Positions 1 through 55,668 of a DNA stretch of 64,000 bases are shown in pieces. Location of the stretch: positions 8,246,001 through 8,310,000 of the forward strand of contig OZ059894.1 of NCBI GenBank assembly GCA_964057225.1, given 5' to 3'. Within the stretch, counting starts at the first letter, position 1; the number at the start of each line of letters is the position of its first letter. The translations under genes and the position numbers were made by a program. The DNA is from Auanema rhodensis (taxonomy: Eukaryota > Animalia > Nematoda). Under the pieces are notes generated by a model. It saw only the letters and a list, made by a program, of their open reading frames with translations. It had not been told where the DNA came from and searched no databases.

Positions 1-216
1 TAGTTCTCACTTCCAACATTTTAGGATCAAAGTCGAGAATGCGTTGTAATTGAGTGTTCTGCGAACAATTACGGTGGATGTCTGCTGCATTAACGACTGG
101 ACTACAAGAGTGAAAAGAAGTCCATCCGGATGTGTGTGTGTCCCATGTTGTGGGCGGGGCTTGTTCAGGCTCCCGCTATTTGAATAGCGCGCACATGTGT
201 GCTTGCAGATGTGACA

Positions 217-220
217 AGGC

Positions 221-256
<36 letters not shown>

Positions 257-271
257 GAGCCCACCCGGGAG
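217..271 (+). pseudogene. Truncated tRNA-Asn(GTT), nt 17-71
   Basis: AGGCAGCGCG...CCACCCGGGAG is identical to the array tRNA but lacks the 5' acceptor strand and most of the A box; TTTTT follows directly. Confidence 0.9.
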
Positions 272-1045
272 TTTTTCTACTGTTTGCCCATTAATAATTG
301 TTCGAACATTCATCGAACCAGCGATGGTGAATACTTGTCTAAATGTAAATTTTCCCTCCGGGGCCATCATTGCATACGATAAAACTCTTTCAAATAAGTT
401 ATCGTGACACATACATTACATTTATTAAGTTACCGTGACACATTATGCTTAGGCAAGGTATAATCGCTTCTAACAACATCAAATACAAGATGGTTGCGAA
501 TATATAGCGGGCACATTATTGAATACATTGTGTCTGTAGAGAGCGATCTCATCGCAAATGACACAATTATAGCGATATACGTGTCCCAACGATGAATGTA
601 GGAATCCTGAGAGTCGTTGTCAAAATGAAACTTTATCCATTGTACGCCGTGCGACCTATATCGAGAGAAGTTCACTCCTGTCAATTCCGAAAACTTTCCC
701 GATTGCTGGAACAAGACGATCGGATCAAATAATATTACTCCAGATGCCTTTTTCACGTTAGTATTTTCGAGCATTTTCAGTAAGTCGGCCGGAGAAATAT
801 CATAGATGGAATGAATAAACGTCATATACGGGGCTGTTATTTGACAATGTTGAGACATGTTCTTACAGGTATACATTTGGTCTCCTTTTAAAATCCTATC
901 GGAAATCTTAGTTCTCACTTCCAACATTTTAGGATCAAAGTCGAGAATGCGTTGTAATTGAGTGTTCTGCGAACAATTACGGTGGATGTCTGCTGCATTA
1001 ACGACTGGACTACAAGAGTGAAAAGAAGTCCATCCGGATGTGTGT
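272..1045 (-). pseudogene. Endogenous viral element: fragment of an alphavirus-supergroup (virga/tobamo-like) replicase methyltransferase/capping domain, disrupted
   Basis: Reading upstream of the 927 ATG in the same frame gives FHSCSPVVNAADIHR (HxCxP...DxxR motif). The ORF has FIHSIYDI and FHFDNDSQDSYIHRW. After the stop at 430 and a frame change, it continues as LFERVLSY...KFTFRQVF...VRTIINGQTV, which parallels tobamovirus replicase FVFTVLNH...SRVIINGVT. Boundary near 1045 is approximate. Confidence 0.85.
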
Positions 1046-1124
1046 GTGTCCCATGTTGTGGGCGGGGCTTGTTCAGGCTCCCGCTATTTGAATAGCGCGC
1101 ACATGTGTGCTTGCAGATGTGACA
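1045..1124. mobile_element. Probable LTR terminus fragment (...GATGTGACA) abutting tRNA-Asn nt 17; second copy ends at 216
   Basis: About 80 bp that is neither viral frame nor array sequence and ends in a canonical LTR-type terminus (TGTCAC on minus) exactly at the tRNA break. The other end is not visible. Confidence 0.5.
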
Positions 1125-1128
1125 AGGC

Positions 1129-1164
<36 letters not shown>

Positions 1165-1181
1165 GAGCCCACCCGGGAGCG
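1125..1181 (+). pseudogene. 5'-truncated tRNA-Asn (nt 17-73), first unit of the array
   Basis: Starts at AGGCAGC and continues into the normal array spacer. Confidence 0.9.
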
Positions 1182-9736: not shown

Positions 9737-10080
9737 CGTTCCGTTATGCTCCTGCGTCGATAATATAAACCATTGTAGTTTATACCATGACGCGAATAGT
9801 ATTCCTTGGTGTAGCGGTAGGAATACAGAGCATAAGGTCAATCATAAGATAAAAGAGAGAAAGATTTATTGGCATGAAACTACAACAATAATATACAAAG
9901 ATAAAGATACAATACAATAAGATAAATATAAGTATAAAGACTAAACTACAAGCCGTCCATGAGCTTGCTAAGAGGCGAACTCCCGACCAAGGGAACGAGG
10001 GAAGGCGGCGCCATTCCTCGGTCCTCTGGTGGTCTGGCTCTAACCCTTCAGCTACATATATGGGGAGTCCGAATGGAACG
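9737..10080 (-). repeat. 3' LTR (344 bp)
   Basis: Direct repeat of 13443-13786; termini CGTTCC...GGAACG. Confidence 0.95.
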
Positions 10081-10338
10081 TGCCCTTTTTCAAAGATTTT
10101 TCGCGTCCGCGCGATATAAAGAGTTTTTAGTGTATATGTAGCTGAGTTTTAGAGTCTAGGAGTTTACAAATAAATTTAAAAGTTTCAAAATCTACATGTA
10201 GAAAGATATATAAATAGTTTTAATAGGTTTCTTTATGGTATTAAGATAGAATTTGAATACAATAATAGGTTTTATGTTATTTTGTAACGGAGGATTAGAA
10301 AATAAATTTAGTCATTGTAGTACTGTAATAAAAAAAAA

Positions 10339-10820
10339 GGGGCTGGTATCGTTTCGCCCACCCCCCCCCCTAAGAGTTAACATTAGAGCGCATGCGTTTT
10401 TTACCTGAAAATAAAGAGTCTCATCTCTGCGAGTGGGAGTGCTCTCTCTGATACTTTTAATACTTTTAAGTTTTGTTGAAGCCCTCTCTATCTGGGGGGG
10501 ATACCCCCCCAGACCCCCCGGATTTGGGATAGAGCACTCCCGCTGGTTTATGCAAAGCTAGTGCGTGCCCAAAATGTTATCTTAGATCATGCGTTATTTA
10601 CTCGAAAATACAGTCTCATTTCTGCGAGTTTAATACTTTTAAATTTTGTTGAAGCTTTCTCTATCTGGGGGGGATACCCCCCCAGACCCCCCGGATCTGG
10701 GATAGAGCACTCCCGCTAGTTTATGCAAAGCTGGTGTGTGCCCAAAATGTTATAAGCGCGCTCTAATGTTAACTCTCTGATTATTAGGGGGGGGGGGGTG
10801 GGCGAAACAATACCAGCGCC
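10339..10820. mobile_element. Nested MITE / non-autonomous DNA transposon (possibly Merlin-like)
   Basis: Imperfect TIRs of about 50 bp (GGGGCTGGTATCGTTTCGCCCACCC.../...GGGTGGGCGAAACAATACCAGCGCC), A8 on both flanks (possible 8-bp TSD), and an internal diverged direct repeat (about 10391-10580 / 10588-10753). Confidence 0.8.
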
Positions 10821-11210
10821 AAAAAAAATTCTTTGTTTCATGAATGTGTGATTTATGTGAGACACTAAGGAATTATTAAACATTTCGGTTACATGGTTAC
10901 TCGTATCCTAATGATGATGGGGATAATTTTAGTTAATAATTTACTCGTCTCCATATGTCTCTCTGAATGAATCCTTGAGTACTAATGGAGGCTACCACTC
11001 AGATGGGGTGTGGCTTAGGCGCCTGCCAATGTTCGTCTCTTCCTGGAGATACATATGGAGCTCAGTTTAGCGCAAAATTTTATCTCTATCGGTCGTATAG
11101 GATTACGGTAGCCATTTATTTCTATTATATTTTCACTTATTCCTTATTTTTGGTTGTTTACTCACTTAATCTCTCATCAAAAAGTTTTCTAATTCACCGT
11201 TACTTTCCTT

Positions 11211-11495
11211 TTACAATTTACAGAAAAGAAAAGAATGTATATAAAAATTTTTTCTGTCGTCGGCTTTGATGAAGTCCGGATCTTCGTAGGTGTCGTCAGA
11301 AGGTGAATATGTTCCTTCTCGGGGAGTATAAAACTGGTCGACTTGCGGCTTCGGCTTCTCGGCTGGTTGGTGCGGTTTTTCTATTTGAACACTAAGAAGT
11401 CGGGTACGGCTTCTGCGACGACTTGCGACAGTAGCGTCACTGTTGGTATCGGACGAGTAAAGGGCTCGGAAAACCGATGAGAATCTTTTGGCCAC
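11211..11495 (-). pseudogene. Remnant of the polyprotein N-terminus (gag leader)
   Basis: VAKRF...DQFYTPREGTYSP...EDPDF aligns with VDKRF...DKFFTPRAGTYSP...SDEDY of the 2894-aa ORF. Confidence 0.8.
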
Positions 11496-13429
11496 CTTTA
11501 TAGGACTCTTGGTTTGGAAAAACCGAGAATGGTGAGCTACGTGTGGGATGTTGACGTAAGGTGCGTAAGATTTTTTTAGATGTGTGTTGGGAGAGAGAAA
11601 GATTCGGGAGCAATAGGATAGTCATGCTTTGCTGGGCGATACGGAGGGTAAATGAGAGGGAGTTTTTCAAATCCTGGCCAGGAATCTGACTCCGCCTATC
11701 TACCGTAAGCTTATTATAGTTAATGATGTTTATCTCTTCGCAAAAACTATTTTTATCCGCTCTTGCACTTTCCTCTAATTTTGTTTTCTTACTGCTCTAG
11801 AATCTTTAAAAAAAACTTTATTCATGTCATCCCCTTTGTACTTTTGCGGCCTTTGGACATTTATTTTAAGGTTAGAAACAAAAGAAAAGAAAAGATAGAA
11901 AGAAAAAAATGGATTTCCAACGTTATAATCCCACTGGCATGACTTAAGTCCTGTGGAAATTATACGAATCCATCGTTGAGTACGATGGAGAAGGAGTTTT
12001 GGCTTATAGGCTAAATCTTGATATAATTTTAATGGTTCGTGTATCTCCATTTTATGTTTGATTATTTGATTACTTTAGTTTATCGAAGATCTTCAAATGT
12101 ATTATTTGGGGCAGGGCCATATAAACTTTGCCACCTTCGTAGATGTAGCTCCCGAAGTGGAGCTTGTTGGTCGAAGGTGCTTAGTTGATCTATGCGCTCA
12201 TGTATATAATGGTAGGGCCGGTTTATTAACCGCACGTCCTTGGGCCTGGTACCAGGAAAAGAGTCATTTTTATTATTATTTATTATATAGATTATTGTTT
12301 AAAATCTATATTGTTTATGATGACTCATTATTTGGTTTGGAACTTAGGGTTTCGCGAGGTTTAGAATATAGTGAAGATTTAATTGCGAGCGAAACTCCTA
12401 TGTTTCTTGCCTCTGAGTTTCGAACTCGGTTGCAAATCAAATACGGGTATTGACTGAACAAAGCTTGTACTCTGTGTTTTTTTTTGTGCACTTTGCACTG
12501 TTTTCGTCAAGAAAATGGCCTTATGTGTTTTTCAATCTTGTCCTCATTCCTTTTTCCTTAAATAGCATGTTTTGCTCAAAATGTTTTCGACATTGTGCAT
12601 GCTAATGAGGTTCGAGGAGAGTTATTGAAAAGGCTGTCCCTTTTCTTGATCAAAATAAGCAAAAGTGCGTTTTCCTAAGCGAATTTCTTTTTGAAAATGA
12701 GAAAAATACGTCTATTTTTGAACATTTCCAAATAACTTAGGATTACCGTAGGAGATAAGGGGTATCTTATGAGTTGAAACAACGAAATGATTTGAGGAAA
12801 GTGACATAATCTACGGGGATAAAATCCGTAGCAGTTATGCTTCCGCCAACTTGACCTGACTGTCAATTAAGAGCTGAGAAGTCCTATTGCAGGTTTACCA
12901 GGCTTTTTCGGACTAGTGTGGTCTCTTTTTATATTCAATTTATGTAACCGTTTTTGGTTTCCCGCAAAATAATATGTTAAATGGTCTTTTACGTCTGAAT
13001 ATAATAATATTTCAAAATTCTAGTCCTGACCACAAAATATACAAACTATAATCAATTGCGCGCGTCTTATAAATTTTTGTTCCAATAATCAAATTTCTCT
13101 ATGCCCAAAAAAAATGTGAACAACTATAATTTCTCGTTTGGCGAAATTGTCCTCTATTTCAATCCAAACGTCCTCAAAATAGCATGAGAAGCGGTACAAG
13201 ATACGATAAAGAAAAGGGTGGACATTCAGGCGGTTTTAAATTGAGGACGGCGTGCAAAAATTTTTATTGGTCCTATCTCGCATTTAAGCGAGATTCCTTG
13301 TATCTGTACCTTTAAACAAATTGGCGCCTTCATTTTGTTGTTTCAAGTGGAGGATTTATAATTTAGAATGCAAAAATGGACTTTTACAATAAAAAAAAAA
13401 ATTTTTTTTTGTTCAAAAGATGAGTTCGA

Positions 13430-13442
13430 GGTGGAACCTCCA
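13430..13442 (-). promoter_or_regulatory. Primer-binding site, tRNA-Gln
   Basis: TGGAGGTTCCACC is complementary to the metazoan tRNA-Gln 3' end GGTGGAACCT-CCA and abuts the 5' LTR. Confidence 0.85.
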
Positions 13443-13786
13443 CGTTCCGTTATGCTCCTGCGTCGATAATATAAACCATTGTAGTTTATACCATGACGCG
13501 AATAGTATTCCTTGGTGTAGCGGTAGGAATACAGAGCATAAGGTCAATCATAAGATAAAAGAGAGAAAGATTTATTGGCATGAAACTACAACAATAATAT
13601 ACAAAGATAAAGATACAATACAATAAGATAAATATAAGTATAAAGACTAAACTACAAGCCGTCCATGAGCTTGCTAAGAGGCGAACTCCCGACCAAGGGA
13701 ACGAGGGAAGGCGGAGCCATTCCTCGGTCCTCTGGTGGTCTGGCTCTAACCCTTCAGCTACATATATGGGGAGTCCGAATGGAACG
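13443..13786 (-). repeat. 5' LTR (344 bp)
   Basis: Followed on the minus strand by the PBS. Confidence 0.95.
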
Positions 13787-21803: not shown

Positions 21804-22241
21804 AAATATTTTTGGTTTCCACAGTTCCAATTAAGCTTCAAATCAAGCAAAATTAAAATTTTTATTCATCTACTCACGATCTCATTCATAAATTTTCTAG
21901 AAGGCGTTCCATTCGGAAATCAATACGTAGCAGGTGGGTTAGAATCAGACGACATGAGGCTGAGAGAGGACGACACGCCCTTCATATGGAACACAGACTT
22001 CAGCTTTGCCTTATGGAATGACTATGGATGGTTGGTCTTCCTTTCTTAGCTCTCTTTCACTTTATATCTTTATGTAGACTTATATAACTTATTGTAATCA
22101 TGTAGACATAATAAACCTTTCTTTCTCGAGTCTTATGTTTATCCATTATGCTCTTTATCTACCGCTACATCTGGAATACTATCACACTCATCTTGTAGGC
22201 TTTATTGGTCTATAGGATCGACGTGAGAGCATAACGGAACG

Positions 22242-22254
22242 TGGAGGTTCCACC
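22242..22254 (+). promoter_or_regulatory. Primer-binding site, tRNA-Gln
   Basis: TGGAGGTTCCACC immediately after the LTR. Confidence 0.85.
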
Positions 22255-23650
22255 TCGAACATTTTTATCTTGATTTCTTGACTATTTTCTCTTATATTTC
22301 GTTATTTTTACTACATTTCATTGAATCTGAATTCTCTTATATCTCTACACCATCTACTCCATGTCTTAACACAATACGGTGGGGCCAACAACGTTTAAAA
22401 GGGAACAGATGCAAGGACCACTCCTTTTGGAGATGGATTTTATATTTTTTGAAACTGAAGTTATATTTTCCCGTTTGTTCACAATTTTCTGTCTGTCTGA
22501 ACCCAACAATTTTTGTATCCTTGCTGTTAACATCAAATACTCTGTTACCCGAACTCGAAGCATTTTTGAGGACCCTAGGATGAATTAGTGAACAAATTCA
22601 CCCAAGGATAATTTTTATTGAGATTTATGCCCACACTTTCCCCTTTTAAGGATTGATTTTGGCTTCGAGGAAAGAATAGCCACGGTTATTTCTTTATTTT
22701 TGTGGATGAAACAATTTTGCGCACCAAATTGAGATTATTTCATATTTTGCGATCAGGACTATTTTATTTTGCGTTACATTTCTGTTCAGACAACTTTTTG
22801 CCATTAACATCCGAAAATATTTTGATAACGCATTGAATTTACACGGGAAACCTCACCTAAATGGGAGGAATATTATGAAAAGTGAATTTTAAGATCGCTA
22901 TAGTCCGAAAAATCCTGTACAATTTTACGAACTGAATTATTATTAGTGATTGTCTATCAGGTCGTGTTGGCTTAAGCATATCAGTTTGGATTTTCTCCCC
23001 TTACTATATGTCACCTTCCTCATACCGTTATTGTTGTTTTGAAGCATAAGACTCATTCCTAAACACCATAATTCTTTAAATATAGTTATTGTAATCTTTA
23101 GTCATCTATTCCTAACCATAATTTTAAAACTAGATTTCTGATCATGATGGGACTACGGTACTCATTCGTTTTCCAAATTGCTTCCTTAAAAGAGTAATGC
23201 TATTACGGATGTACATTATGAAAACCGCTAAAATCCTTTGAACATTTACCAAAGTCCATTTTCGTGGCATTTTCGATCACTCGTGAGTCCAAGAAGATCA
23301 GAATCGTCAGAAAAAGAAAAAAAAATGGGAATAAGGACTAATGAGATTGCTCAGGCATCAATCAAGTGAGCACTGAACATTTTTGAACATATACAAACTG
23401 GTTGAATTATATACATTTAAGAATATTAAATTGGAAAGCGAACAAAGTCCAAATTTTCATACGGTAGTAGGCGGATCTCTGTTAAAGGCCACAACTTAGA
23501 TTCATTCCTTAACGCCGACTATACAAACCAGTTACGCACAGCTTTCTCACCCCTTTTCCAAAACTCCTTATCCATAACACTCATTAACGTCTCAAAATCC
23601 CCCACGTTACTAAACACTCAAGGTTTTTCCAAACCAAGAGCGCTACCAAA

Positions 23651-24165
23651 GTGGATAAGCGATTTCGATCAGCTGTACCTCTCAGTACACGAACTGATTT
23701 TGATCTGCGAGACTCAGCTCCACTCACCCGAAGCCGAGCTCGCGCACAAAGCATCGCTATAATCGAAGACGAGCAGAAAGCCGAGCACAAAACCGACAAA
23801 TTCTTTACTCCTCGTGCAGGCACTTATTCACCTACTGAACGATTAAGCGACGAGGATTACGTACCACCAGGAGGAGAAGAAACATCCATCATAGTGGAAG
23901 AACAAACACCAGTTACTGCTAAGAAGTCAACAACGTTGAAGGAAACATGGTACAACTCAAGAATCCATTTGGAAAAATTCAAGACGTACACAAAGACAAT
24001 CTCAAACTTTTGCGATCAAATACAACGACTTATGACACGGACGACGACAGCGATATTGAGATCATAAAAGTCATAAATGGTAACGATAACTATGACTCTA
24101 CTGAAGAAACAGAACCAGAAGACCCATCGGACCAAAATTGGCTACCACCAAGAAGAAGACGATGA
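23651..24165 (+). pseudogene. Deleted polyprotein: first ~90 codons joined out of frame to the integrase C-terminal tail
   Basis: 23651-23922 matches aa 1-91 of the 2894-aa ORF. 23947-24165 matches its C-terminus (MVQLKNPFG...NWLPPRRRR) with a further small deletion. Confidence 0.93.
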
Positions 24166-25299
24166 AAGAAATAATTTCGAGATTGATAAAATTATTGTAA
24201 AACTTTGTATCAACTCTCTTTTAAAAAACCAGAGCTATTAATATTATTATATCATTGAAAAACTTGAGTAAGACGAGATGTAAGCTAGTAATGAAAAAGC
24301 ATTTCAGTTTCAAAGCATATATGATTATAAAACTTCATCAATTTCAAATAATTTCCCGTAAATAAAGAAGAAATGAAAGATAAGAGACATTATATTGCAT
24401 ATTCATCTGAGCAACAGTCCTTATCAAGTAGTTAATGATTCAATTCCGGAAATTATATGGGATTTAGTTTAATTTTTTTTATTATTACAATTCGCTTTGA
24501 ATACGCTGAAGAAACATGCTAGCTCCATCGATAATATAGCATGACTCTCGTTTCTCTATACTCAAACAAGTTAGACATGCAGCGTCGTGCCTAAAAAGCT
24601 ATTTTGCGCACTCTCGCTGACAAAATATAGCCCTGGTATTCTAAAAGATTGTTTTATTCCTTAATATTCATGTATTTTCAAATAATTTTTATTAAATTCT
24701 TTTCAGATAATATTGTTTAACATTATATTGTAATTTATCTTTACTATTTTTATGTTAACATTGTAATTTTTATTTTTCAAAACTAAACCTTCTACTACGA
24801 TTGAAACAAGCCACATATTTTGCTATTCGCGAGGACGCGCCATAAACTCGAAAAAATGGCACGTTCCATTCGGAAATCAATACGTAGCAGGTGGGTTAGA
24901 ATCAGACGACATGAGGCTGAGAGAGGACGACACGCCCTTCATATGGAACACAGACTTCAGCTTTGCCTTATGGAATGACTATGGATGGTTGGTCTTCCTT
25001 TCTTAGCTCTCTTTCACTTTATATCTTTATGTAGACTTATATAACTTATTGTAATCATGTAGACATAATAAACCTTTCTTTCTCGAGTCTTATGTTTATC
25101 CATTATGCTCTTTATCTACCGCTACATCTGGAATACTATCACACTCATCTTGTAGGCTTTATTGGTCTATAGGATCGACGTGAGAGCATAACGGAACGAA
25201 GGATTGGATAAGATAGACCAGAACATCAGAAAATATGGATCATTGACTGATCTAAAACAGAAGTAGAACCTTCACAAGTCTAGATTGTTGAGTATATGT

Positions 25300-25473: not shown

Positions 25474-25810
25474 CGTTCCATTCGGAAATCAATACGTAGC
25501 AGGTGGGTTAGAATCAGACGACATGAGGCTGAGAGAGGACGACACGCCCTTCATATGGAACACAGACTTCAGCTTTGCCTTATGGAATGACTATGGATGG
25601 TTGGTCTTCCTTTCTTAGCTCTCTTTCACTTTATATCTTTATGTAGACTTATATAACTTATTGTAATCATGTAGACATAATAAACCTTTCTTTCTCGAGT
25701 CTTATGTTTATCCATTATGCTCTTTATCTACCGCTACATCTGGAATACTATCACACTCATCTTGTAGGCTTTATTGGTCTATAGGATCGACGTGAGAGCA
25801 TAACGGAACG
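25474..25810 (+). mobile_element. Solo LTR (337 bp)
   Basis: Same sequence as 21905-22241, AAGG on both sides, no PBS or internal sequence. Confidence 0.96.
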
Positions 25811-29677: not shown

Positions 29678-30106
29678 GAGCCCACCCGGGTATCGCGAAT
29701 GCGATTATTCATCATTCAATCGATGCAATCTCATCACGTTGGCTGATGAGATTCACGGGCACTCTGTTTTTATACCACCGTCGCGGACGGTCGCTTTTCT
29801 CTCTCCTCGTTGCTGTCTTTATCTTATGACTCATCTAGTCTGAACCACCGTTTTATCCTTGTCCTTTAGTAAGACTATCTCTAGTCTCATTAGTGATGTA
29901 TATCTAGTCTTATTACATTCACTCTAGTCTTCTATGTACTTTATCTAGTCTTATTATATATCTTCTAGTCCTTATATTCTGTATTTTGTATATCTGAATG
30001 GCATATGAATGAATCTTTCTTCCTCTAATAGTCTTTTATGTTAACAGGGCATAGAATAGAAAGTGTGAACCTGGGAGGCTATTTGAAGAGCCCTTTATCT
30101 TCAAAA

Positions 30107-30124
30107 TGGTGCATCGGCCGGGAA
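30107..30124 (+). promoter_or_regulatory. Primer-binding site, tRNA-Gly
   Basis: TGGTGCATCGGCCGGGAA is complementary to the tRNA-Gly(GCC) 3' end TTCCCGGCCGATGCA-CCA. Confidence 0.9.
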
Positions 30125-30431
30125 ACATGTGTAGAGTACAACCCAAATACTCCCAACTTCACCATAGTATTTCCGGCTCATGTTGTATTGCATGACCACA
30201 CATTCATCTCACGACATATTATCGATAAAAATGACACATTTGCATTGCATCAACTTGATTGTCCAGCAACTCCGTTTTGCGATATGATTCAATGTCTGTT
30301 CTGTCTTGAACTACTCCACAACCCATCTTGTTTCCCATACGCAGCACTCTCGGCGACCGCACTCATCATATGGCTCATTCTATTTAGTATTCTTTTAAGC
30401 ATCATAGTCATTCGAATTTGTTCTAAAAAAT
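30125..30431 (+). pseudogene. C-terminal fragment of a phlebovirus-like Gn glycoprotein plus TM helix
   Basis: CPATPFCDMIQCLFCLELLHNPSC followed by a hydrophobic stretch. 5'-truncated at the PBS and out of frame with Gc. Confidence 0.75.
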
Positions 30432-32339
30432 TTGTTCATATTGCACAATACACCCCTTTTTTCCGTTTGGCGTATGATCACTCAATGTCTCCCCTCTCAT
30501 ATAAGATCTCATATCTCTATTCAGGAAGAACGATCGGTACTCGAGTACGTCCCGCTCAGTTCTCACAAGCTACCTCGATGGCAGAAGTCTACACCCTCAC
30601 AACGATCACGACAACGTGACCGATTAGTTCACCGAGTCGGGTATCTTTTTGTTGCAATAATCGTCATTTTTTTGATTGAATCTCTTGTAGTTAATGCATG
30701 TACTATTGTTCCTCCGAGTATATCACATGTTCCAGGCAACTCCGTCTCGAACTTATCACCTACCCACCAAGTCAACCAAGTCAGCAGCTCCACCACCCTC
30801 CATACTTACGATAATGAGGTATGTTTTACAACTTCACATTCAAACCGATCATACGCCAATCCCCTCACGAACTCACACCTGCGCATCAAACTTATGTATA
30901 CACGTATACTGTGCACGAAAGTATCCTTATTTTTTACACGTCACACCATCGTAAAAACTGAATCCGCAAAACGGTGTCCCCATATGGGCTCTTGTGTAGG
31001 ATCGTTTTGTGCGAACGTTCGACCCAATACATCAATCTCAGAACTCTCATTAGCCAACCAATATCCAGGTACCAGCTATTGTTCAGAAAGCTGTGGATTT
31101 CTATCATGCGGTTGTGCGTTGCCAACTTCTGGTTGTCTCTTCTATCGCAACTTTCATGTTCCCAATGACAATATCACCCACGAAGTTTTCTACTGCTCAC
31201 GATGGACACCTAGGGTTTTTCTCCAGATTAGCATCCATACAGCTATTGAAAACAAAACTGAAACGATCTCGCACGTCCCCTTTTTACCACACTCTACAAA
31301 AATCATTAACGGGTACCATATTACTCTTGGGAGAATAACATATTCTGATAATGAAATCCTCCATAGACGATACATTACTTCCGACTCGAGAATTGCAGTT
31401 TTACCTCACTCTGCTACATTTTCATACTCGTGCGGAAAAGTTAAAACCGCTGACCCATTCTCCGAATGCACTGCAACAGACACATGTTCATGCAGACCAG
31501 CCGAAACAGTCGAAAATTGCTATTGTCAGGACAACAATCCTAACAAACTCTATACTAATAACTACACCCTACCATTATCTCTTCCATCTCTGACCATGAT
31601 CCCAAAAAACAATCTCATTTTTGCTCATCCCATAAGCGCTGTTGACATTAAAATGTGGACAAATATCTCAGATGTCACTTATGAATACGACGATAGTCCT
31701 ACTATTTGCGAACTAAAATCCAAAGACCTAGTTGGATGTTTTGACTGTGTTACTGGAGCAACAACAATCATTACTTGCATCAGTACATCATCCCACATTC
31801 GAATTTCGTGCGACGATGAAGAATTTCTGCTTACATGCAATTCTCAGGGTTACAACAACTCTATTCGCATACACAGCAATTTTTCAACACCGTCTATAAC
31901 GTGTACTCATCCGTGTACTTCCGCCACATTACATCTCAAAGGCAACTTGTACTACGTGAACGAATACATAGGTTTTGAACAGTCCACTCATCAGATTACA
32001 AACAGTTCATTCAGTCTCCTGAACGTCGAGTTTACCATACCGAGCTTTTTTGTACCCACTCACTTAATCAGCTCACTTGTTTCGTTTTACTCGGACTACC
32101 TTAAAACGATTGTAATACTATTGAGTGTTTTGATCACAGTACTCGGCTTTGTAACCGCCGTAATTGACCGCGTCTTCCAGTTGTCAAGTACACCCGCTCT
32201 CTTAGCATATTTACCCATACAAATACTTATTATCTTCGCAATTCCTTTTCGCATCATTTTTTTCACAATTCATTTGTTGTTCAAGATTGTAGTTCGAGCC
32301 AGTCATAGCGCAGTGGCTAAGGGTACACACTCTCAGTGA
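30432..32339 (+). CDS. env: Phlebovirus-like Gc (class II fusion) envelope glycoprotein
   Basis: Internal signal (YLFVAIIVIFLIESLVVNAC), RCPHMGSC, CSESCGFLSCGCALPTSGCLFYR fusion-loop region, GCFDCVTGA, C-terminal TM segments. True start uncertain. Confidence 0.88.
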   Translation: MFILHNTPLFSVWRMITQCLPSHIRSHISIQEERSVLEYVPLSSHKLPRWQKSTPSQRSRQRDRLVHRVGYLFVAIIVIFLIESLVVNACTIVPPSISHVPGNSVSNLSPTHQVNQVSSSTTLHTYDNEVCFTTSHSNRSYANPLTNSHLRIKLMYTRILCTKVSLFFTRHTIVKTESAKRCPHMGSCVGSFCANVRPNTSISELSLANQYPGTSYCSESCGFLSCGCALPTSGCLFYRNFHVPNDNITHEVFYCSRWTPRVFLQISIHTAIENKTETISHVPFLPHSTKIINGYHITLGRITYSDNEILHRRYITSDSRIAVLPHSATFSYSCGKVKTADPFSECTATDTCSCRPAETVENCYCQDNNPNKLYTNNYTLPLSLPSLTMIPKNNLIFAHPISAVDIKMWTNISDVTYEYDDSPTICELKSKDLVGCFDCVTGATTIITCISTSSHIRISCDDEEFLLTCNSQGYNNSIRIHSNFSTPSITCTHPCTSATLHLKGNLYYVNEYIGFEQSTHQITNSSFSLLNVEFTIPSFFVPTHLISSLVSFYSDYLKTIVILLSVLITVLGFVTAVIDRVFQLSSTPALLAYLPIQILIIFAIPFRIIFFTIHLLFKIVVRASHSAVAKGTHSQ

Positions 32340-32370
32340 TTGATGACGGGTTCAATACCCAGTGAGTCCT
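32299..32370 (+). ncRNA. Degenerate tRNA-like / Pol III A+B box cassette
   Basis: TAGCGCAGTGG (A box, 32306) and GGTTCAATACC (B box, 32349) at tRNA-like spacing, T-runs downstream, imperfect stems. Confidence 0.5.
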
Positions 32371-32476
32371 CGATTTATTTTCTCGATTTCTTAGTTCCCT
32401 ATCATAGCAAACGATTGTTCAATTTGATTTACACCAATCCTACACAATTTATCATTTCGCCGGGGGGAGGTATACT

Positions 32477-32896
32477 ATGTATAAAAACCATCATTATTTC
32501 AGTCTTGATAACATCAAAGAATGGAGCGATTCCCTTGATCAACTCCAGGATAACGGCAACGCAAAGATGCCTAACAAAAGTCAGAATATGTCTGCACCAA
32601 AAAAGCAGAACAACTCTAAAGTGAAGTACAGAAAAATGGAAGAAGACATGAAATGTCAACTCTGTTGGAAGAAGGGCCACACCATGGGAAAATGCACAGT
32701 CTACAAGACTGCAGCACAACGCGTCAAGCGTTGCAAGTTGATCAACATGTGCTTGAAGTGTTTGCGGAACCACTTTGGAAAACCGTGTGTGGAGAAGATG
32801 AAGAAAATATGTCATGTGTGCAAAGGAAGCGGACTGGACCACGATCATCCTGGTGTATTATGCAAGCTGCAGTTTGCGGAGGAATTAGCAGAATGA
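32477..32896 (+). CDS. Small basic triple zinc-knuckle protein (BEL/Pao Gag NC-like), downstream of env
   Basis: CQLCWKKGHTMGKC, CLKCLRNHFGKPC, CHVCKGSGLDHDHPGVLC; Lys-rich. Confidence 0.75.
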   Translation: MYKNHHYFSLDNIKEWSDSLDQLQDNGNAKMPNKSQNMSAPKKQNNSKVKYRKMEEDMKCQLCWKKGHTMGKCTVYKTAAQRVKRCKLINMCLKCLRNHFGKPCVEKMKKICHVCKGSGLDHDHPGVLCKLQFAEELAE

Positions 32897-33552
32897 AATC
32901 AGTTCTGATTTCTCTCTCTTGGCCCGGAATATCGCGAATGCGATTATTCATCATTCAATCGATGCAATCTCATCACGTTGGCTGATGAGATTCACGGGCA
33001 CTCTGTTTTTATACCACCGTCGCGGACGGTCGCTTTTCTCTCTCCTCGTTGCTGTCTTTATCTTATGACTCATCTAGTCTGAACCACCGTTTTATCCTTG
33101 TCCTTTAGTAAGACTATCTCTAGTCTCATTAGTGATGTATATCTAGTCTTATTACATTCACTCTAGTCTTCTATGTACTTTATCTAGTCTTATTATATAT
33201 CTTCTAGTCCTTATATTCTGTATTTTGTATATCTGAATGGCATATGAATGAATCTTTCTTCCTCTAATAGTCTTTTATGTTAACAGGGCATAGAATAGAA
33301 AGTGTGAACCTGGGAGGCTATTTGAAGAGCCCTTTATCTTCAAAACCGGGAGCGAAATATTTTTGGTTTCCACAGTTCCAATTAAGCTTCAAATCAAGCA
33401 AAATTAAAATTTCAATTCATCTACTTACGATCTCATTCATAAATTTTCTAGAAGGATTGGATAAGATAGACCAGAACATCAGAAAATATGGATCATTGAC
33501 TGATCTAAAACAGAAGTAGAAACTTCACAAGTCTAGATTGTTGAGTATATGT

Positions 33553-44202: not shown

Positions 44203-44539
44203 CGTTCCGTTATGCTCTCACGTCGATCCTATAGACCAATAAAGCCTACAAGATGAGTGTGATAGTATTCCAGATGTAGCGGTAGATAAAGAGCATAATG
44301 GATAAACATAAGACTCGAGAAAGAAAGGTTTATTATGTCTACATGATTACAATAAGTTATATAAGTCTACATAAAGATATAAAGTGAAAGAGAGCTAAGA
44401 AAGGAAGACCAACCATCCATAGTCATTCCATAAGGCAAAGCTGAAGTCTGTGTTCCATATGAAGGGCGTGTCGTCCTCTCTCAGCCTCATGTCGTCTGAT
44501 TCTAACCCGCCTGCTACGTATTGATTTCCGAATGGAACG
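44203..44539 (-). repeat. 3' LTR (337 bp)
   Basis: Direct repeat of 55332-55668. Confidence 0.97.
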
Positions 44540-45239
44540 TGCCATTTTTTCGAGTTTATGTCGCGTCCTCGCGAATAGCAAAGTATGTGGCTTGTTTCAA
44601 TCGTAGCAGAAGGTTTAGTTTTAAAAAATAAAAATTACAATGTTAACATAAAAATAATAAAGATAAATTACAATATAATGTTAAACAATATTATCTGAAA
44701 AGAATTTAATAAAAATTATTTGAAAATACATGAATATTAAGGAATAAAACAATCTTTTAGAATACCAGGGCTATATTTTGTCAGCGAGAGTGCGCAAAAT
44801 AGCTTTTTTAGGCACGACGCTGCATGTCTAACTTGTTTGAGTATAGAGAAACGAGAGTCATGCTATATTATCGATGGAGCTAGCATGTTTCTTCAGCGTA
44901 TTCAAAGCGAATTGTAATAATAAAAAAAAAATTTAAACTAAATCCCATATAATCTCCGGAATTGAATCATTAACTACTTGATAAGGACTGTTGCTCAGAT
45001 GAATATGCAATATAATGTCTCTTATCTTTCATTTCTTCATTATTTACGGGAAATTATTTGAAATTGATGAAGTTTTATAATCATATATGCTTTGAAACTG
45101 AAATGCTTTTTGATTATTAGCTTACATCTCGTCTTACTCAAGTTTTTCAATGATATAATAATATTAATAGCTCTGGTTTTTTAAAAGAGTGTTGATACAA
45201 AGTTTTACAATAATTTTATCAATCTCGAAATTATTTCTT

Positions 45240-48200
45240 TCATCGTCTTCTTCTTGGTGGTAGCCAATTTTGGTCCGATGGGTCTTCTGGTTCTGTTTCT
45301 TCACTAGAGTCATAGTTATCGTTACCATTTATGACTTTTATGATCTCAATATCGCTGTCGTCGTCCGTGTCATAAATCGTTGTATTTGATCGCGTGTTTT
45401 GAGCGATTGTATGCTCCATTTTGCGATCAAAAAGTTTTAGATTGTCTTTGTGTACGTCTTGAATTTTTCCAAATGGATTCTTGAGTTGTACCATGTTTCC
45501 TTCAACGTTGATGACTTCAAATGGTCCGTCATATGATTTGCGAAGCTTTTGACCTGGTCTATGCGCTTTAATTGCTAACATAACATGGTCTCCTTTTCGG
45601 ATATCTCTTTCTTCTATTCGTTGTCGTCCATCATGTTTTCTCTTCGCGGTTTCTTGATGTTTTGCAAGATTTTCTTGAATGATGGTTCTTCTTTCTCCTC
45701 TGATATATTCGGTATTCTCAATTTCTTCCAAGATCTCTTGTTGTAATGTCTCGGGGAATAATTCTTTGTCTAATCTCATACGACTTTCTTTTCCGAATAA
45801 TGCTATGTATGGAGAGATTCCTGTGGTTGCGTGTGTTATTGTATTTAACGCAAAAGTAATTTTTGGTAAATACATGTCCCAATCAGTTACGTCTTCGTTG
45901 AGATAGTGTGTTAATCCTTCTTCTAGCGTTCTGTGTAGTCTTTCGACTTGTCCATTAGAGTTTTTCTGATGAGGGAGTGTTGGCTCGTGTTTAATGCCAA
46001 GTTTTTCACACATTTCTTCAAATTTCTTTGATACAAAATTAGATCCACGATCGGTTATTAAACGATTTGGTGGTCCAAAAATATATACGAAATTCCTGAG
46101 GAATCTATCAATGATGACATCGGTGACAATTGTTGGTATAGCGATGGTTGTCGCCCATTTGGAGAATGAATCTTGTATTGTTAGGACATAATTGTTGTTT
46201 CTTTTTGAAGTAGGGAATGGTCCCATAATATCCATATGTATTCTCTCAAATGGTTTTGATGGTATTTCAAATTGACCCATAGGCTGAACGGTCATAGCGT
46301 GAGGATCTTTCTTCCTTTGTGCGCATTTAACGCATTGTTTCACAAAAATTGCTATGTCCGTTTGCATATTTGTCCAGCTAAATCTTCGTAGTATGGCTTC
46401 TTTAGTTTTGTTAATTCCTTGATGTGCTCCAATTGCTGGGTCTTCGTGAAATTCTTCGATAACCTTGTTGATAAGTTCGCTTTCCCTTGGTAAAATCAAA
46501 GCTGGGTGTGGTCGTTTTCTGCTTGGTTTTGTGTATAACATGTTGTCAATAACACAATAACGATCATTAGAAAGCATGTTCTTTTTCGCTCTGTATTCTA
46601 TTTCGGCGATAGTTCTCTTTATCCAAGGTGTATCCTCTTGAATTGCTCTAATGTCAGGTACATTAACGAAATTAATTTGAGCTTTCGGAATTTCTTTTGT
46701 TTTCTTTTTCTTTTCCGGTTTAGGATCGTTTGCTTCATCTCCAATGTATCGTGAGAGAGCATCACAGACTTTGTTTAGTCTGCCTTCTCGGTATCTTATC
46801 TCGATATCGTATTCTTGTATGACTAATTGAAATTTTGCTAGTCTTCCAAAAAGGTCTCTACGAGTCAATAAGCTTGTTAATGGTCGATGGTCTGTGATAC
46901 AGATTGTATGTGATCCAAGTATATATGTTCGAAACTGAGCTAAAGCATATACGAGTCCTAACGCTTCTATTTCAATAGGAGCATAGTTACGTTCTGCTTT
47001 TACAAGTTTACGGCTTGCAAATGCAATTGGATGTAAGTTTTTGAGTGGTTCATTGGGATCTTCAGGTTGTAATAACACTGCTCCCACTGCGATATTACTA
47101 CCATCACTTTCTATAATGAACATACGGTCTGATCTTGGCGGTTTTAAGACCGGTGCTTGGATCAATTTTCTTTTTAGTGTATCAACAGCTTGTTGACTTT
47201 TGTCATTCCATTGAAATTCTACATCAAGTTTTGTAAGGTCGTATAAAGGGCTTGCGATGTGTGCAAAATCTTTAATAAATTTCCGAAAGAATCCTACCAT
47301 TCCCAAAAATGCTCTTACTCCTGTAGGTGACTTTGGAGCAGGATAGTCTTGAATGGCGGAGACTTTCTGTGGATCTGGTTTGACCCCATCTCTTCCGACA
47401 ATTAAACCAAGAAATTTTACTTCAGGTCTCGCAAAAGCGCATTTCTTGAGTTTTATTTTCATGCCTAATTTCTTTACTTCTCTGAGAATCTCAGCTATAT
47501 CGTCAAGATGTTGTTCTGCAGTGTCTGATATAACGAGTAGATCATCCAAATAAACAAAGAGTCGGCATTTACATCGGCTTTGAAGGTATCGTACTGCTGT
47601 TTGAAAGGTATGTGGCGCTCCACATAACCCCATAGGCATCCTTCTATATTGATAAGTACCGGTGTTTGTTGTAAATGCTGTTAATGGTCGATCTGATTTC
47701 TTTAATGCTATTTGGAAGAATCCGGATACTAAATCAAAGTTAGAAAAATATTGTGATCCGGCTGCCATATCGACAATGTCGGAGATGTTAGGTATGATGT
47801 ACGTTTGCTTGCGAGTGACGTTATTTAGAGCACGGAAATCGGTTACGAAACGGAATGTTTCATCTTTCTTTTTGACTAAAACTACAGGACTATTGAAAAG
47901 AGATGTGGATGGTTCAATTATATTTTGCTTCAGCATCTCCTGTACCTGTCTTTCGACTTCTTCTTGTTTGCCTATAGGGATACGCGTTATACGCGGTCTA
48001 GGCATGTCCATATCTGTTCTTAGAGGTATTGAATGCTCTACAGGTCCTTTAAATAGTCCTATTCGTTTATCCTCATTTAAAAATGCGTCTCTATTACGTA
48101 GAATACAAAGCTGAAGAAGATCTTTTTGTTCTTTAGTTAGGTCGGCGTCTTTCAAATCAAGATCGTTCATAAAGTCCTGAGGGAAATGAGGTAATTTATT

Positions 48201-51200
48201 TTCCCAATCCGCTTCGGGTGGTATATAGTCTGGATTGTGTTCGGTCGTAAAGATCTCGTATTGTGGCAGTACGCCTATTTTTGCTTTGTCAATAATGTTT
48301 CCGGGTGATAGATCTATAGGATGATCAGTGTTGTTTTTGAATGTCATGGTAATTGAATTGACGTCTCGAAATGCTGTTTCGTAGGTGGTAGATATCGTCT
48401 TTTCTTCATCGGGTTGTAGCATGGCGACTTCGTTGTGTGATATGGGTTCAGCTAACCTTACTGGTATTCTACAGGTCTGATGAGGAAAGATACATTGTGG
48501 ATTTAAATTTATCAAATTAATGACAAATGATGTTTTTCTAATATTCCCGTTATTTCCATTGGCTAACGGTACTACGCGGTTTCCGATTTCTAACGTTTGT
48601 TTGTATGGTCGAAGTTTCATACCGATATTTTGACGGTCGAGTGTTTTCATAAAATCTAATCCAATTAATGCTGGTGATGGACAGTCTTCATCTCTTGAAA
48701 TGAAGAATGTATGATCTATTTCATATCCAGCGATTTCTACGGTTAAATCAATTGTTCCCAGAAATCGAAATGCTGATCCGTTTGCTGTCGTTGCAACTGA
48801 TTTATCCTTTTTTACAAAATCATTCAAAGTTAAGTAATGTAATGTTGAGAGTCTGATATAACTAATCGATGATCCTGAATCCCAAAGAGTTAGGATTAGT
48901 CTATCGTTAACAGTCATCAATAGCAGTGGTAGAGTTTGGTCTTTGCGATTGGAAACTGAACAAACTATGGGCATAGCTAGTGGAACTAAAGTGAGAAACG
49001 ATGGATAGTACTGTTTCATTATGTTCCTTGGTATTGGCTGATCAGGTTGACTTACTAGCTCTAATGTTTCTTCATATGTGGGAAGATCGTTGGTTTGATC
49101 TCGGAGTTCGATATGCATGACTTGCATGCCTATTGGTTTGAAGAAATATATTTTCGCAACAAAGGCTAGTACGATCAGTATAACTACAATAATTGTAATT
49201 GCTCCAATAGTGATGAGTGTTCGTTCAATCGTTCCTGCTATTGTATCGACAAAAGAATTCCATGTACTTTTGGTGAATTCATTGGCTTTGGAGATGTAAT
49301 CACTACTTTTCTTCAATATGCTGAATGCTGATGATATTTTCGGATCATGATGAATTGTGTGAAGCACGTGATTTTGACGAATCGATGCTAAACTAGCACC
49401 ATAAGCAATGGCTGTTGTCATTGAGTACACTCGAGATGATAAGTTGGTGTATAAGTGTGCTCCGGTGAATTTTAATGGCGTGATCTTTTCATGATGAAGT
49501 CCGTCCCACATGGATATAAGACTGACGTCTACAGTACCATTAATTCCTTTCCATTCACCGTCTGTTGACCATACGTCTGTTGGTACGTGATCACAGTTAA
49601 TTTCTTTACCATGAGGTAATAGGTCTTTCGATCCTGGTGCGGCAAACAGTAATTGTCCTTCTTGTGTTAATACTGGAGTTTCGAGATAACATGTGCCATT
49701 CACAGTGTGATTGTGATATATAGTCTTTTGTAATACTACCGGGCAAACATGTATATGTAATATCTCGCTGCCTACAAATCTTGCGGCTATATCTTCTCTT
49801 CCCAGTATTGTACGCATAGCTATTGTTGGTTCGATTTGTAAAATTGATCTCCATAATTCAAGATACCTATTTTGGATCTCACATATTGATTCGTATGACT
49901 CTTTAAAATGTTTCTGCAGTTCTTCTTGAATCATAGTTGTAGCATATTGCAAATGATCTTGTGCAATTCTGCTTGTTATGTTTTGGCGAAACTGTTGTTC
50001 AGAGTCAACTTTTGTGGCAATGTATTGAGCATTAGCCTGTACAGACTCTATATCGGTGGCTGTAGGCGTTGATGATGCTCTATGTTTACGAATCAAAGAT
50101 ATTGGTGTATATGTAGTTTCTTCCATTATTGGAATTTGTTGATCTTGATGAACAGCGTAGAGAATAGTAGTTGGCGGCGCGCGGGTCGATATTGTTGCGC
50201 GCGCGGTTGTCGTTGCGGTTGTATGGCGCGCCGTTGTTTCGGGCTGGGCCATCGATGAAGGCGCGCGCGCGGTAGTTGCTGCGGCTGCCCGAGGGCTTGT
50301 AGATGTTTGCGGCAGTATTGCGGGATCTGTTGTGATCGGCGCCTCACGATCGATTATAGGGAGGGCTGCCATCTCGGCCGCGCCGCCTGCCGCGTTGCTT
50401 GGCGCACGCGTCGTGGTTTGCAACGATTTAAGTTGGATTTTCTCTGTCATTAATCTTTTTAACTGTTCTGATGATATTCTACTAGATGTATTAGGCAAAA
50501 TATTATCGTTTAGTAGTGGTAAAAATATTTCCAATAATAAGTCCTTAGAGATGTTGTTGGGCTCTATGAGCTTGGGATGTGGTCCAATTGGTATTCCAAA
50601 ATTATTCTTGATGTCATAGAACAATTTATCAGTATCAAGTACAAACATTCGTGAAGATGGAAGGTTTATAAATTTTATATCATCAATATCAGCTGCTGTT
50701 TTATTTCTTCTAAGCGTAACGAGAGTTTTTAGCTCATGTACAAGGTCAATTGTATCTTTTATAAATTTGCTGTTTCTTTCTTCTTGATCAGTTAATAATT
50801 GTTTCCTTATTGGTGGCATTTTTACGAATGCTTTCAATATTTCTTGTCTTGATGGAACTGTTAATTTGTCTTCAATTATAACTGGTGTATTGGCTAAATC
50901 AAGAGCAATAGTTTCAGCACGCTCTCGATAAGTGCCTTCTTTTGTACGAATTAACCGATCAAATTCAATAACGGTCAAACGATCTGATATTTGTTGAAGA
51001 AGTTGCCTGGATGTTAAATAAGATATTCCAGCTTTAGTAGCTAAAGCTAATTCTCTTTGAGCAACATATTGTAAAATGGCTTCGTCTTTATCACGGAAAT
51101 CATATTGTTTGAGAAAATGTCTTAAAGATTTCTCATAAATTTGAATTTTAAAGAAAAATTCAAAATTTTCACGATGGGCTATTATCCATTCTTTCAAGGA

Positions 51201-53924: not shown

Positions 53925-55318
53925 TTTGGTAGCGCTCTTGGTTTGGAAAAACCTTGAGTGTTTAGTAACGTGGGGGACTTTGAGACGTTAATGAGTGTTA
54001 TGGATAAGGAGTTTTGGAAAAGGGGTGAGAAAGCTGTGAGTAACTGGTTTGTATAGTCGGCGTTAAGGAATGAATCTAAGTTGTGGCCTTTAACAGAGAT
54101 CCGCCTACTACCGTATGAAAATTTGGACTTTGTTCGCTTTCCAATTTAATATTCTTAAATGTATATAATTCAACCAGTTTGTATATGTTCAAAAATGTTC
54201 AGTGCTCACTTGATTGATGCCTGAGCAATCTCATTAGTCCTTATTCCCACTTTTTTTTCTTTTTTTTCTGACGATTCTGATCTTCTTGGACTCACGAGTG
54301 ATCGAAAATGCCACGAAAATGGACTTTGGTAAATGTTCAAAGGATTTTAGCGGTTTTCATAATGTACATTCGTAATAGCATTACTCTTTAAGGAAGCAAT
54401 TTGGAAACGAATGAGTACCGTAGTCCCATCATGATCAGAAATCTAGTTTTAAAATTATGGCTAGGAATAGATGACTAAAGATTACAATAACTATATTTAA
54501 AGAATTATGGTGTTTAGGAATGAGTCTTATGCTTCAAAACAACAATAACGGTATGAGGAAGGTGACATATAGTAAGGGGAGAAAATCCAAACTGATATGC
54601 TTAAGCCAACACGACCTGATAGACAATCACTAATAATAATCCAGTTCGTAAAATTGTACAGGATTTTTCGGACTATAGCGATCTTAAAATTCACTTTTCA
54701 TAATATTCCTCCCATTTAGGTGAGGTTTCCCGTGTAAATTCAATGCGTTATCAAAATATTTTTGGATGTTAATGGCAAAAAGTTGTCTGAACAGAAATGT
54801 AACGCAAAATAAAATAGTCCTGATCGCAAAATATGAAATAATCTCAATTTGGTGCGCAAAATTGTTTCATCCACAAAAAATAAAGAAATAACCGTGGCTA
54901 TTCTTTCCTCGAAGCCAAAATCAATCCTTAAAAGGAGAAAGTGTGGGCATAAATCTCAAAAAAAATATCCTTAGGTGAATTTGTTCACTAATTCATCCTA
55001 GGGTCCTCAAAACTGCTTCGAGTTCGGGTAACAGAGTATTTGATGTTAACAGCAAGGATATAAAAATTGTTGGGTTCAGACAGACAGAAAATTGTGAACA
55101 AACGGGAAAATATAACTTCAGTTTCAAAAAATATAAAATCCATCTCCAAAAGGAGTGGTCCTTGCATCTGTTCCCTTTTAAACGTTGTTGGCCCCACCGT
55201 ATTGTGTTAAGACATGGAGTAGATGGTTTAGAGATATAAGAGAATTCAGATTCAATGAATTGTTGAAAATAACGAAATATAAGAGAAAATAGTCAAGAAA
55301 TCAAGATAAAATGTTCGA

Positions 55319-55331
55319 GGTGGAACCTCCA
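55319..55331 (-). promoter_or_regulatory. Primer-binding site, tRNA-Gln
   Basis: TGGAGGTTCCACC abutting the 5' LTR. Confidence 0.85.
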
Positions 55332-55667
55332 CGTTCCGTTATGCTCTCACGTCGATCCTATAGACCAATAAAGCCTACAAGATGAGTGTGATAGTATTCC
55401 AGATGTAGCGGTAGATAAAGAGCATAATGGATAAACATAAGACTCGAGAAAGAAAGGTTTATTATGTCTACATGATTACAATAAGTTATATAAGTCTACA
55501 TAAAGATATAAAGTGAAAGAGAGCTAAGAAAGGAAGACCAACCATCCATAGTCATTCCATAAGGCAAAGCTGAAGTCTGTGTTCCATATGAAGGGCGTGT
55601 CGTCCTCTCTCAGCCTCATGTCGTCTGATTCTAACCCGCCTGCTACGTATTGATTTCCGAATGGAAC

Positions 55668-55668
<1 letters not shown>
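55332..55668 (-). repeat. 5' LTR (337 bp)
   Basis: Termini CGTTCC...GGAACG. Confidence 0.97.

Follow-up and report, generated by a model that had tools for sequence, protein, structure and literature searches.

A viral methyltransferase fragment fused to a repeat and a truncated tRNA at the edge of a tRNA-Asn array in a probable nematode genome

The left edge of the window, by which we mean the whole 64,000-nt stretch of DNA that was analysed, carries a non-retroviral endogenous viral element (EVE) derived from an undescribed Martellivirales-type virus. In the reading that we favour and hold to be reasonably probable, a piece of viral replicase became joined to a repeat, likely of the host, and to a truncated tRNA. 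The 908-bp unit seen at this locus would have arisen when the end of a longer insertion was duplicated once, locally, by polymerase-theta-type repair, and the locus would persist as a passenger.

Nucleotides 1-271 are identical to 909-1179, which sets the period of the unit at 908 bp (blastn, window). The window contains 1.3 such units, and a blastn search of 269-1130 against the window found no additional copy. The first-pass annotation had described units made of tRNA-Asn nt 17-71 and antisense viral sequence, repeated at this period with no visible differences, and this description holds: the stubs at 217-271 and 1125-1179 correspond by sequence comparison to nt 17-71 of the array tRNA-Asn, and the two copies agree letter for letter. 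The sequence opens with the end of a first copy (1-216, minus strand), composed of viral part and repeat piece, cut by the window edge and identical to 909-1124. The tRNA-Asn(GTT) stub that follows (217-271, plus strand) was recognized by comparison with the intact gene at 1368-1440 and yields a partial Rfam tRNA match (26.7 bits); it retains the B box and has lost the A box and the 5' acceptor arm. The T-run list places a TTTTT directly after the stub (272-276, plus strand), of which 272-273 are likely junction filler. Next come viral replicase sequence from downstream of the methyltransferase core, in a second reading frame (274-402, minus strand; tblastn), a break at which a 31-nt patchwork replaces about 30 viral codons and the frame changes (403-433; flank-copy analysis), and the stop-free fragment of the viral capping methyltransferase (434-1039, minus strand), which lacks the first 68 positions of the profile. 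A high-depth repeat piece, likely of host origin as judged from contig depths and GC content, is fused 5' of the viral sense strand (1043-1124). The stub at 1125 belongs to a 5'-truncated tRNA-Asn (nt 17-73, 1125-1181, plus strand), the first array unit in the window, and continues as tRNA nt 72-73, followed by a normal 3' end and spacer. The rest of the window (1182-64000, plus strand) is a tandem tRNA-Asn(GTT) array of 259/271-bp units, with 149 genes and LTR interruptions (ARAGORN and other analyses). The viral part had been described as some 770 bp of continuous sequence; its viral nature stands from 274 to about 1039, and its continuity is lost at the patchwork. Similarly, the 80 bp or so listed as a further component of the unit are present, but are a high-depth repeat of their own.

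The viral assignment rests on protein comparisons. On the minus strand, 217 codons (433-1083) run without a stop. Comparing this frame with viral methyltransferase profiles, as the first-pass annotation had proposed, gave a match to PF01660 that spans profile positions 69-238 of 310, with E 3.2e-15 and a score of 56.5 bits (cut-off 27). A HMMER search of 1.84 billion representatives retrieved 244 relatives at E<=0.001. The best of them, P0001, is a nege/virga-like replicase of 2488 aa with 36% identity to the fragment. All four top-ranking long relatives that were scanned feature a helicase and an RdRP_2 domain; an FtsJ domain was found in P0001 and P0003 and in neither P0004 nor P0005. The second viral frame (278-397) scores at least 25 bits with 93 of 151 relatives and matches the next part of the replicase (tblastn). 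In the ESM Atlas a Vmethyltransf cluster ranked first (0.88), a lead only. Word-seeded protein searches yielded no relative of near or greater length, a PDB sequence search gave no match, and a search of viral contigs gave no relative. The homology is thus significant and links the fragment to a protein of RNA viruses that have no DNA stage; PF01660 together with the replicase relatives supports the earlier proposal of an endogenous fragment of a novel virus, here of Martellivirales type. A working protein from the fragment seems unlikely, because the start of the capping domain is missing and the frame is broken.

Virus names were attached to 16 of the 30 relative clusters that were looked up. 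Among these, the nege-like and virga-like viruses take their names from insects, mites and other arthropods; the others are bluner-like plant viruses and one virus named for a liver fluke. None of the 16 is a nematode virus or a tobamovirus. The nearest relatives of the fragment are nege/virga/kita-like, so that the virga half of the original "virga/tobamo-like" label is retained and the tobamovirus half finds no counterpart among the named clusters. A quick tree was built from the 75 best matches with at least 150 aligned residues, 74 of which were retained (75 rows, 202 columns). In this tree the fragment joins P0001 and P0005 with an SH-aLRT of 81, on long branches and flagged as unsure. 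No family was assigned; of the viral genome, the window contains the methyltransferase region only. It is plausible that the virus infects nematodes, because its DNA reached the germline. Virga-like viruses have been reported from nematodes in the available portion of PMC12770441.

The break at 403-433 has a distinctive make-up. Relatives have a median of 42.5 residues in this interval (26 of the top 30 usable), compared with 11.7 codons here, and one diverged contig has 97 letters where the window has 31. Within the patchwork, 29 of the 31 letters are copies, at least 7 nt long and one of them inverted, of sequence lying within 100 nt; none of 20000 shuffles and none of 360 control 31-mers equalled or exceeded this value. 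In C. elegans, patchwork insertions and tandem duplications (100 bp-10 kb, median about 1 kb) are polymerase theta products, and duplications of this type are rare in wild-type worms, according to the excerpted text of PMC8654963. The present locus resembles these events in having a tandem duplicate of about 1 kb and a deletion with several templated flank pieces, whereas the events in that text were described in repair mutants and the present allele is a natural one. By analogy, the break and the duplicate were likely made by polymerase-theta-type repair.

The fragment also occurs in independent DNA. Thirteen runs were listed, among which nine DNA runs, from three studies, contain 0.90-0.96 of the fragment words and another contains 0.33; the DNA labels were guessed automatically, the runs span three studies and three organism labels, and one run may be the source of the window. 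No RNA run containing the fragment was listed, which has no bearing on expression. Contigs from four of the ten positive runs (X9, X2, X7 and X10) were aligned to 272-1124. The junction between virus and repeat is spanned by contigs of X9 (1010-1072), X2 (933-1072) and X7 (432-1066), the shorter side contributing some 24-33 letters, at or under the 31-letter rule of the alignment tool. The viral sequence is therefore joined to likely host sequence in independent DNA, while the window alone shows the junctions with the tRNA. Germline inheritance is suggested by the near-identity of the sequence in runs that bear three organism labels. Coverage in X10 is limited to 460-781 (depth 5) and the repeat piece, and yields no ratio.

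In the other three runs the broken sequence occurs beside an unbroken form. A contig ends at 402 in X9, X2 and X7, which marks a branch point. The broken path (373-461) has depths of 248.6 (X9), 16.2 (X2) and 73.9 (X7), and the second path, as obtained from bin sums, 307, 19.4 and 73.8, giving ratios of 0.81, 0.84 and 1.0 in these three of the four runs. Contig depth is not copy number, and only ratios between neighbouring paths within a run were used. Depths in X2 step through 16, 32 and 48. Contigs containing 274-402, of 467, 2102 and 3656 nt, continue to the left with letters other than those of the tRNA stub. Relative to the second path, the depth of this leftward extension is 1.0, 1.15 and 0.95; relative to the summed depth it is 0.47-0.63. 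Because the extension has only about half of the summed depth, we infer that the unbroken form continues to the left and that the broken form stops near 274, as it does in the window. The extension is likely viral, because near-identical and diverged contigs agree there at 0.93. None of the aligned contigs of X9, X2 and X7 covers 272-273, and neither stub junction was seen in the contigs shown, a display from which some records were left out. The simplest reading of the run depths would be one long insertion, of which 1-216 is the right end (the DNA left of position 1 lies outside the window), plus one 908-bp duplicate. Any arrangement of n broken and n unbroken copies fits the depths equally well, and the ratios of 0.81 and 0.84 fall below 1, which counts against a single duplicate. 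With 1.3 units in the window, many copies not observed, and depths of about one broken copy per unbroken long copy, the tandem amplification first proposed is weakened, and amplification to many copies by the tRNA array is unsupported. In X2 only, a third partial viral copy seems to enter at 933 (933-1072; depth about 18, 17.9).

A second, diverged copy is represented by record 8 of X2 and record 12 of X7, in which 87 of 599 letters differ from the window (85.5% identity). Third codon positions account for 34 of 39 differences among those listed (p 5e-12; 40 differences shown and 44 more existing, one having been dropped as that of another contig). This bias is that of two virus strains under purifying selection, and for that reason suggests that a related strain integrated separately; the virus would then likely have reached the nematode germline twice, as two variants 85% identical. 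Relative to the broken path, the depth of this copy is 0.41 (X2), 0.11 (X7) and 0.013 (X9), values compatible with an insertion that is not fixed or with a genome that forms a minority of the sample. If the 85% copy were taken to mark single-copy depth, these three runs would give n of about 2.5, 9 and 78.

The repeat piece stands out by its depth. Summed contig depths over 1043-1124 reach 97,162 (X9), 2,454 (X2) and 9,510 (X7), compared with about 510, 32 and 143 for the viral part, which places the piece at 129-391 times the depth of the broken path (three runs, summed contigs). Its GC content is 55%, versus 39% in the viral part, and it lies inside two contigs (345 and 426 nt) that extend beyond both of its ends and carry a 7-nt insertion relative to the window. 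The interval is a piece of a longer repeat, likely of the host. No match to the LTR elements of the window was obtained by blastn, Rfam detected only tRNA above chance over 1-1700, a 25-nt motif of the piece had no exact match in metagenome contigs, and the piece folds no better than shuffled sequences (z -1.55; 12/200 as good). The fusion of virus and repeat came first, because it is common to the broken and the unbroken forms. Just upstream of the tRNA junction, 1103-1114 matches the tRNA 5' flank and first bases (1362-1373) in exact register at 10 of 12 letters, a similarity found post hoc that is possibly the homology that guided the join.

Taken together, these data suggest an origin in four steps. 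Viral RNA would have been reverse-transcribed, probably by the enzyme of an LTR element such as those present in the array; the finding that the fragment adjoins neither an LTR nor a primer site nor an RT gene speaks against this step. The cDNA would then have been joined to the 82-nt repeat piece, a junction present in contigs from three runs, and to tRNA nt 17, a junction that the window alone shows. Subsequently the last 0.9 kb, including tRNA nt 17-71, was likely duplicated in tandem, the duplicate losing about 30 codons to the patchwork insertion; the break itself is observed, and the mechanism is proposed from it. Finally, the locus would have remained a passenger, as its anatomy provides for no whole capping domain and no Pol III entry is expected. 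Overall, the mechanism of origin looks ordinary. Priming of reverse transcription by the tRNA, in which the tRNA sense strand runs into viral antisense, was considered and not adopted as the main reading: the stub ends at nt 71 without a 3' end, and other copies continue past 274, making the stub-virus junction secondary.

A different history, possible though in our judgement unlikely, starts from a 0.85-kb insert in a tRNA gene, flanked by a 55-bp target duplication (nt 17-71), from which unequal crossing-over produced several or many 908-bp units, the long form residing elsewhere. This would account for the 271-bp identical repeat at period 908 and for the start of both stubs at nt 17. Moreover, the array does duplicate inserts, as evidenced by an LTR element (21905-25198) and a solo LTR (25474-25810) at the same site with AAGG, and the viral part exceeds the 85% copy in depth by a factor of 5 to about 160. 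However, a ratio of about 1:1 between broken and unbroken copies in three runs of three studies would not be kept under independent expansion. The repeat piece would stand at 374-30,363 x if depth were counted in units of the 85% copy, as opposed to 129-391 x in units of the broken path.

The single-duplicate, passenger reading also has to be set against a functional one, in which the worm would retain the locus because it supplies, from generation to generation, antisense or small RNA directed at the cognate virus, with the stub or array chromatin driving its expression. Functional EVEs of the mosquito piRNA-cluster type give rise to antisense small RNAs active against the matching virus. The viral sequence does lie antisense behind a stub with an intact B box, and two integrations of related strains suggest repeated exposure. 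Orientation alone, though, is a coin toss, and a search for selection on the window copy gave no sign of it. A type-2 Pol III unit has A and B boxes and no early T-run, a T-run being the Pol III terminator. In both stubs tRNA nt 8-16 are replaced, so that the A box is lost and the B box present, and the TTTTT at 272-276 would presumably act as a Pol III stop. All 149 intact tRNA-Asn(GTT) genes identified by ARAGORN are on the plus strand, to the right of the insert, and point away from it. Pol III read-through into viral antisense therefore appears unlikely from the sequence, because the A box is gone, TTTTT follows the stub at once and the intact tRNAs point away. Virus-derived siRNAs exist in nematodes, as shown for a Brugia virus (PMC11445058, in part), and a nematode EVE can be transcribed at a low level (PMC5177903, in part). 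On balance we regard a small-RNA function as quite improbable. Slightly less probable still is an extended form of the idea, in which the array edge, as a landing zone for LTR elements, captures virus cDNA, duplicates it by array recombination and feeds a small-RNA system, providing inherited sequence-specific immunity to a still-circulating nege-like virus that entered the germline at least twice.

Equally improbable, in our estimate, is that the viral fragment is real while the duplicate and the stub junction are assembly artefacts at a repeat edge. In favour of this, the 271 nt shared by the two copies show no difference and lie where a long array begins, and contigs of three runs pass unbroken through 274 into other sequence, leaving 272-273 uncovered. 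Against this, the broken path was found in X9, X2 and X7, and the half-depth leftward extension requires one form to end near 274; contigs drop branches, and some records were left out of the display. Domestication of the methyltransferase, with the 85% copy as an old paralogue under host selection, could draw on the 217 stop-free codons and the third-position bias (34 of 39 listed differences, p 5e-12) but is scarcely credible, given that the first 68 profile positions are missing from the window copy and its frame is broken, that the 85% copy lies at 0.01-0.4 of broken-path depth, and that two virus strains would be expected to show the same bias.

Kondo et al. are said to have described, in 2019, virga/nege-like EVEs of insects. 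Martellivirales EVEs are common in bees, according to the accessible part of a Bombus survey (PMC12922265), and the present fragment is similar to the insect elements covered there in virus group and in consisting of fragmentary replicase pieces of some hundred bp, the insect ones being mostly single copy. It differs in its likely nematode host, its tRNA-array junction and its local duplicate, and in having 36% identity at best to any library protein. The closest nematode parallel is eBxnv-1 of Bursaphelenchus xylophilus, a nodavirus-like EVE in a degenerate BEL/Pao element (PMC5177903, as excerpted). Both are sequences of positive-strand RNA viruses in a nematode genome, near-invariant between carriers. 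In the same excerpts, eBxnv-1 is a nodavirus RdRp ORF between two LTRs, single copy, transcribed and attributed to LTR-element RT, whereas here a broken Martellivirales-type methyltransferase fragment abuts a tRNA array, no LTRs were identified, and RT capture would be the probable route. A partiti-like EVE with two variants 88% identical occurs in Toxocara canis, and an orbi-like EVE in Brugia (PMC11445058 and PMC12548735, sections available). These share with the present case the repeated integration, here a likely one, of related virus variants in one nematode genome, but derive from dsRNA viruses and RdRp genes, and the sections available mention no tRNA array. Neither a nematode EVE of the virga/nege group nor an EVE at a tRNA array was found in listings and passages of the open-licence literature, and the fragment may be the first virga/nege-group EVE for nematodes. 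The locus is a record of an undescribed virus and offers bait for finding the live virus, as well as a carrier locus for testing whether nematode EVEs make antiviral small RNAs.

The array next to the insert comprises 149 tRNA-Asn(GTT) genes in 64 kb (1368-63821) and runs off the right end of the window. Nothing relevant to such arrays was found in the open-licence nematode literature. The short D-loop of its tRNA-Asn looks nematode-like. A BEL/Pao-type deletion derivative (29691-33345) encodes a phlebovirus G2 envelope (PF07245, E 2.5e-64), the ORF of which has four homologues, all from nematodes, at 27-30%; these neighbours make a nematode host likely. The derivative has identical 416-bp terminal repeats that start with TATCGC and end with TCAAAA. 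Its insertion into a tRNA 3' arm produced a CCGGG duplication and lies 2 nt from the position at which the stub of the viral unit ends. Gypsy-type LTR elements are located at 9737-13786, 21905-25198, 25474-25810 and 44203-55668, and feature two LTR types about 74% alike. Their termini are unusual (CGTTCC...GGAACG, not TG...CA), and their target duplications are 4 bp long (TAAG, AAGG, CGCG). The insertions are recent, because LTR pairs are 99.7-100% identical. A single 2915-codon frame on the minus strand (45243-53987) encodes, in this order, gag, fusion glycoprotein, protease, RT, RNase H and integrase; the envelope sits between gag and pol and matches Monjiviricetes_fusion (E 6.5e-13), a herpes gB-like match being below cut-off. 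The internally deleted element at 21905-25198 and the solo LTR at 25474-25810 occupy one and the same site in units close to each other, both with the AAGG duplication, which suggests that unequal exchange has taken place within the array.
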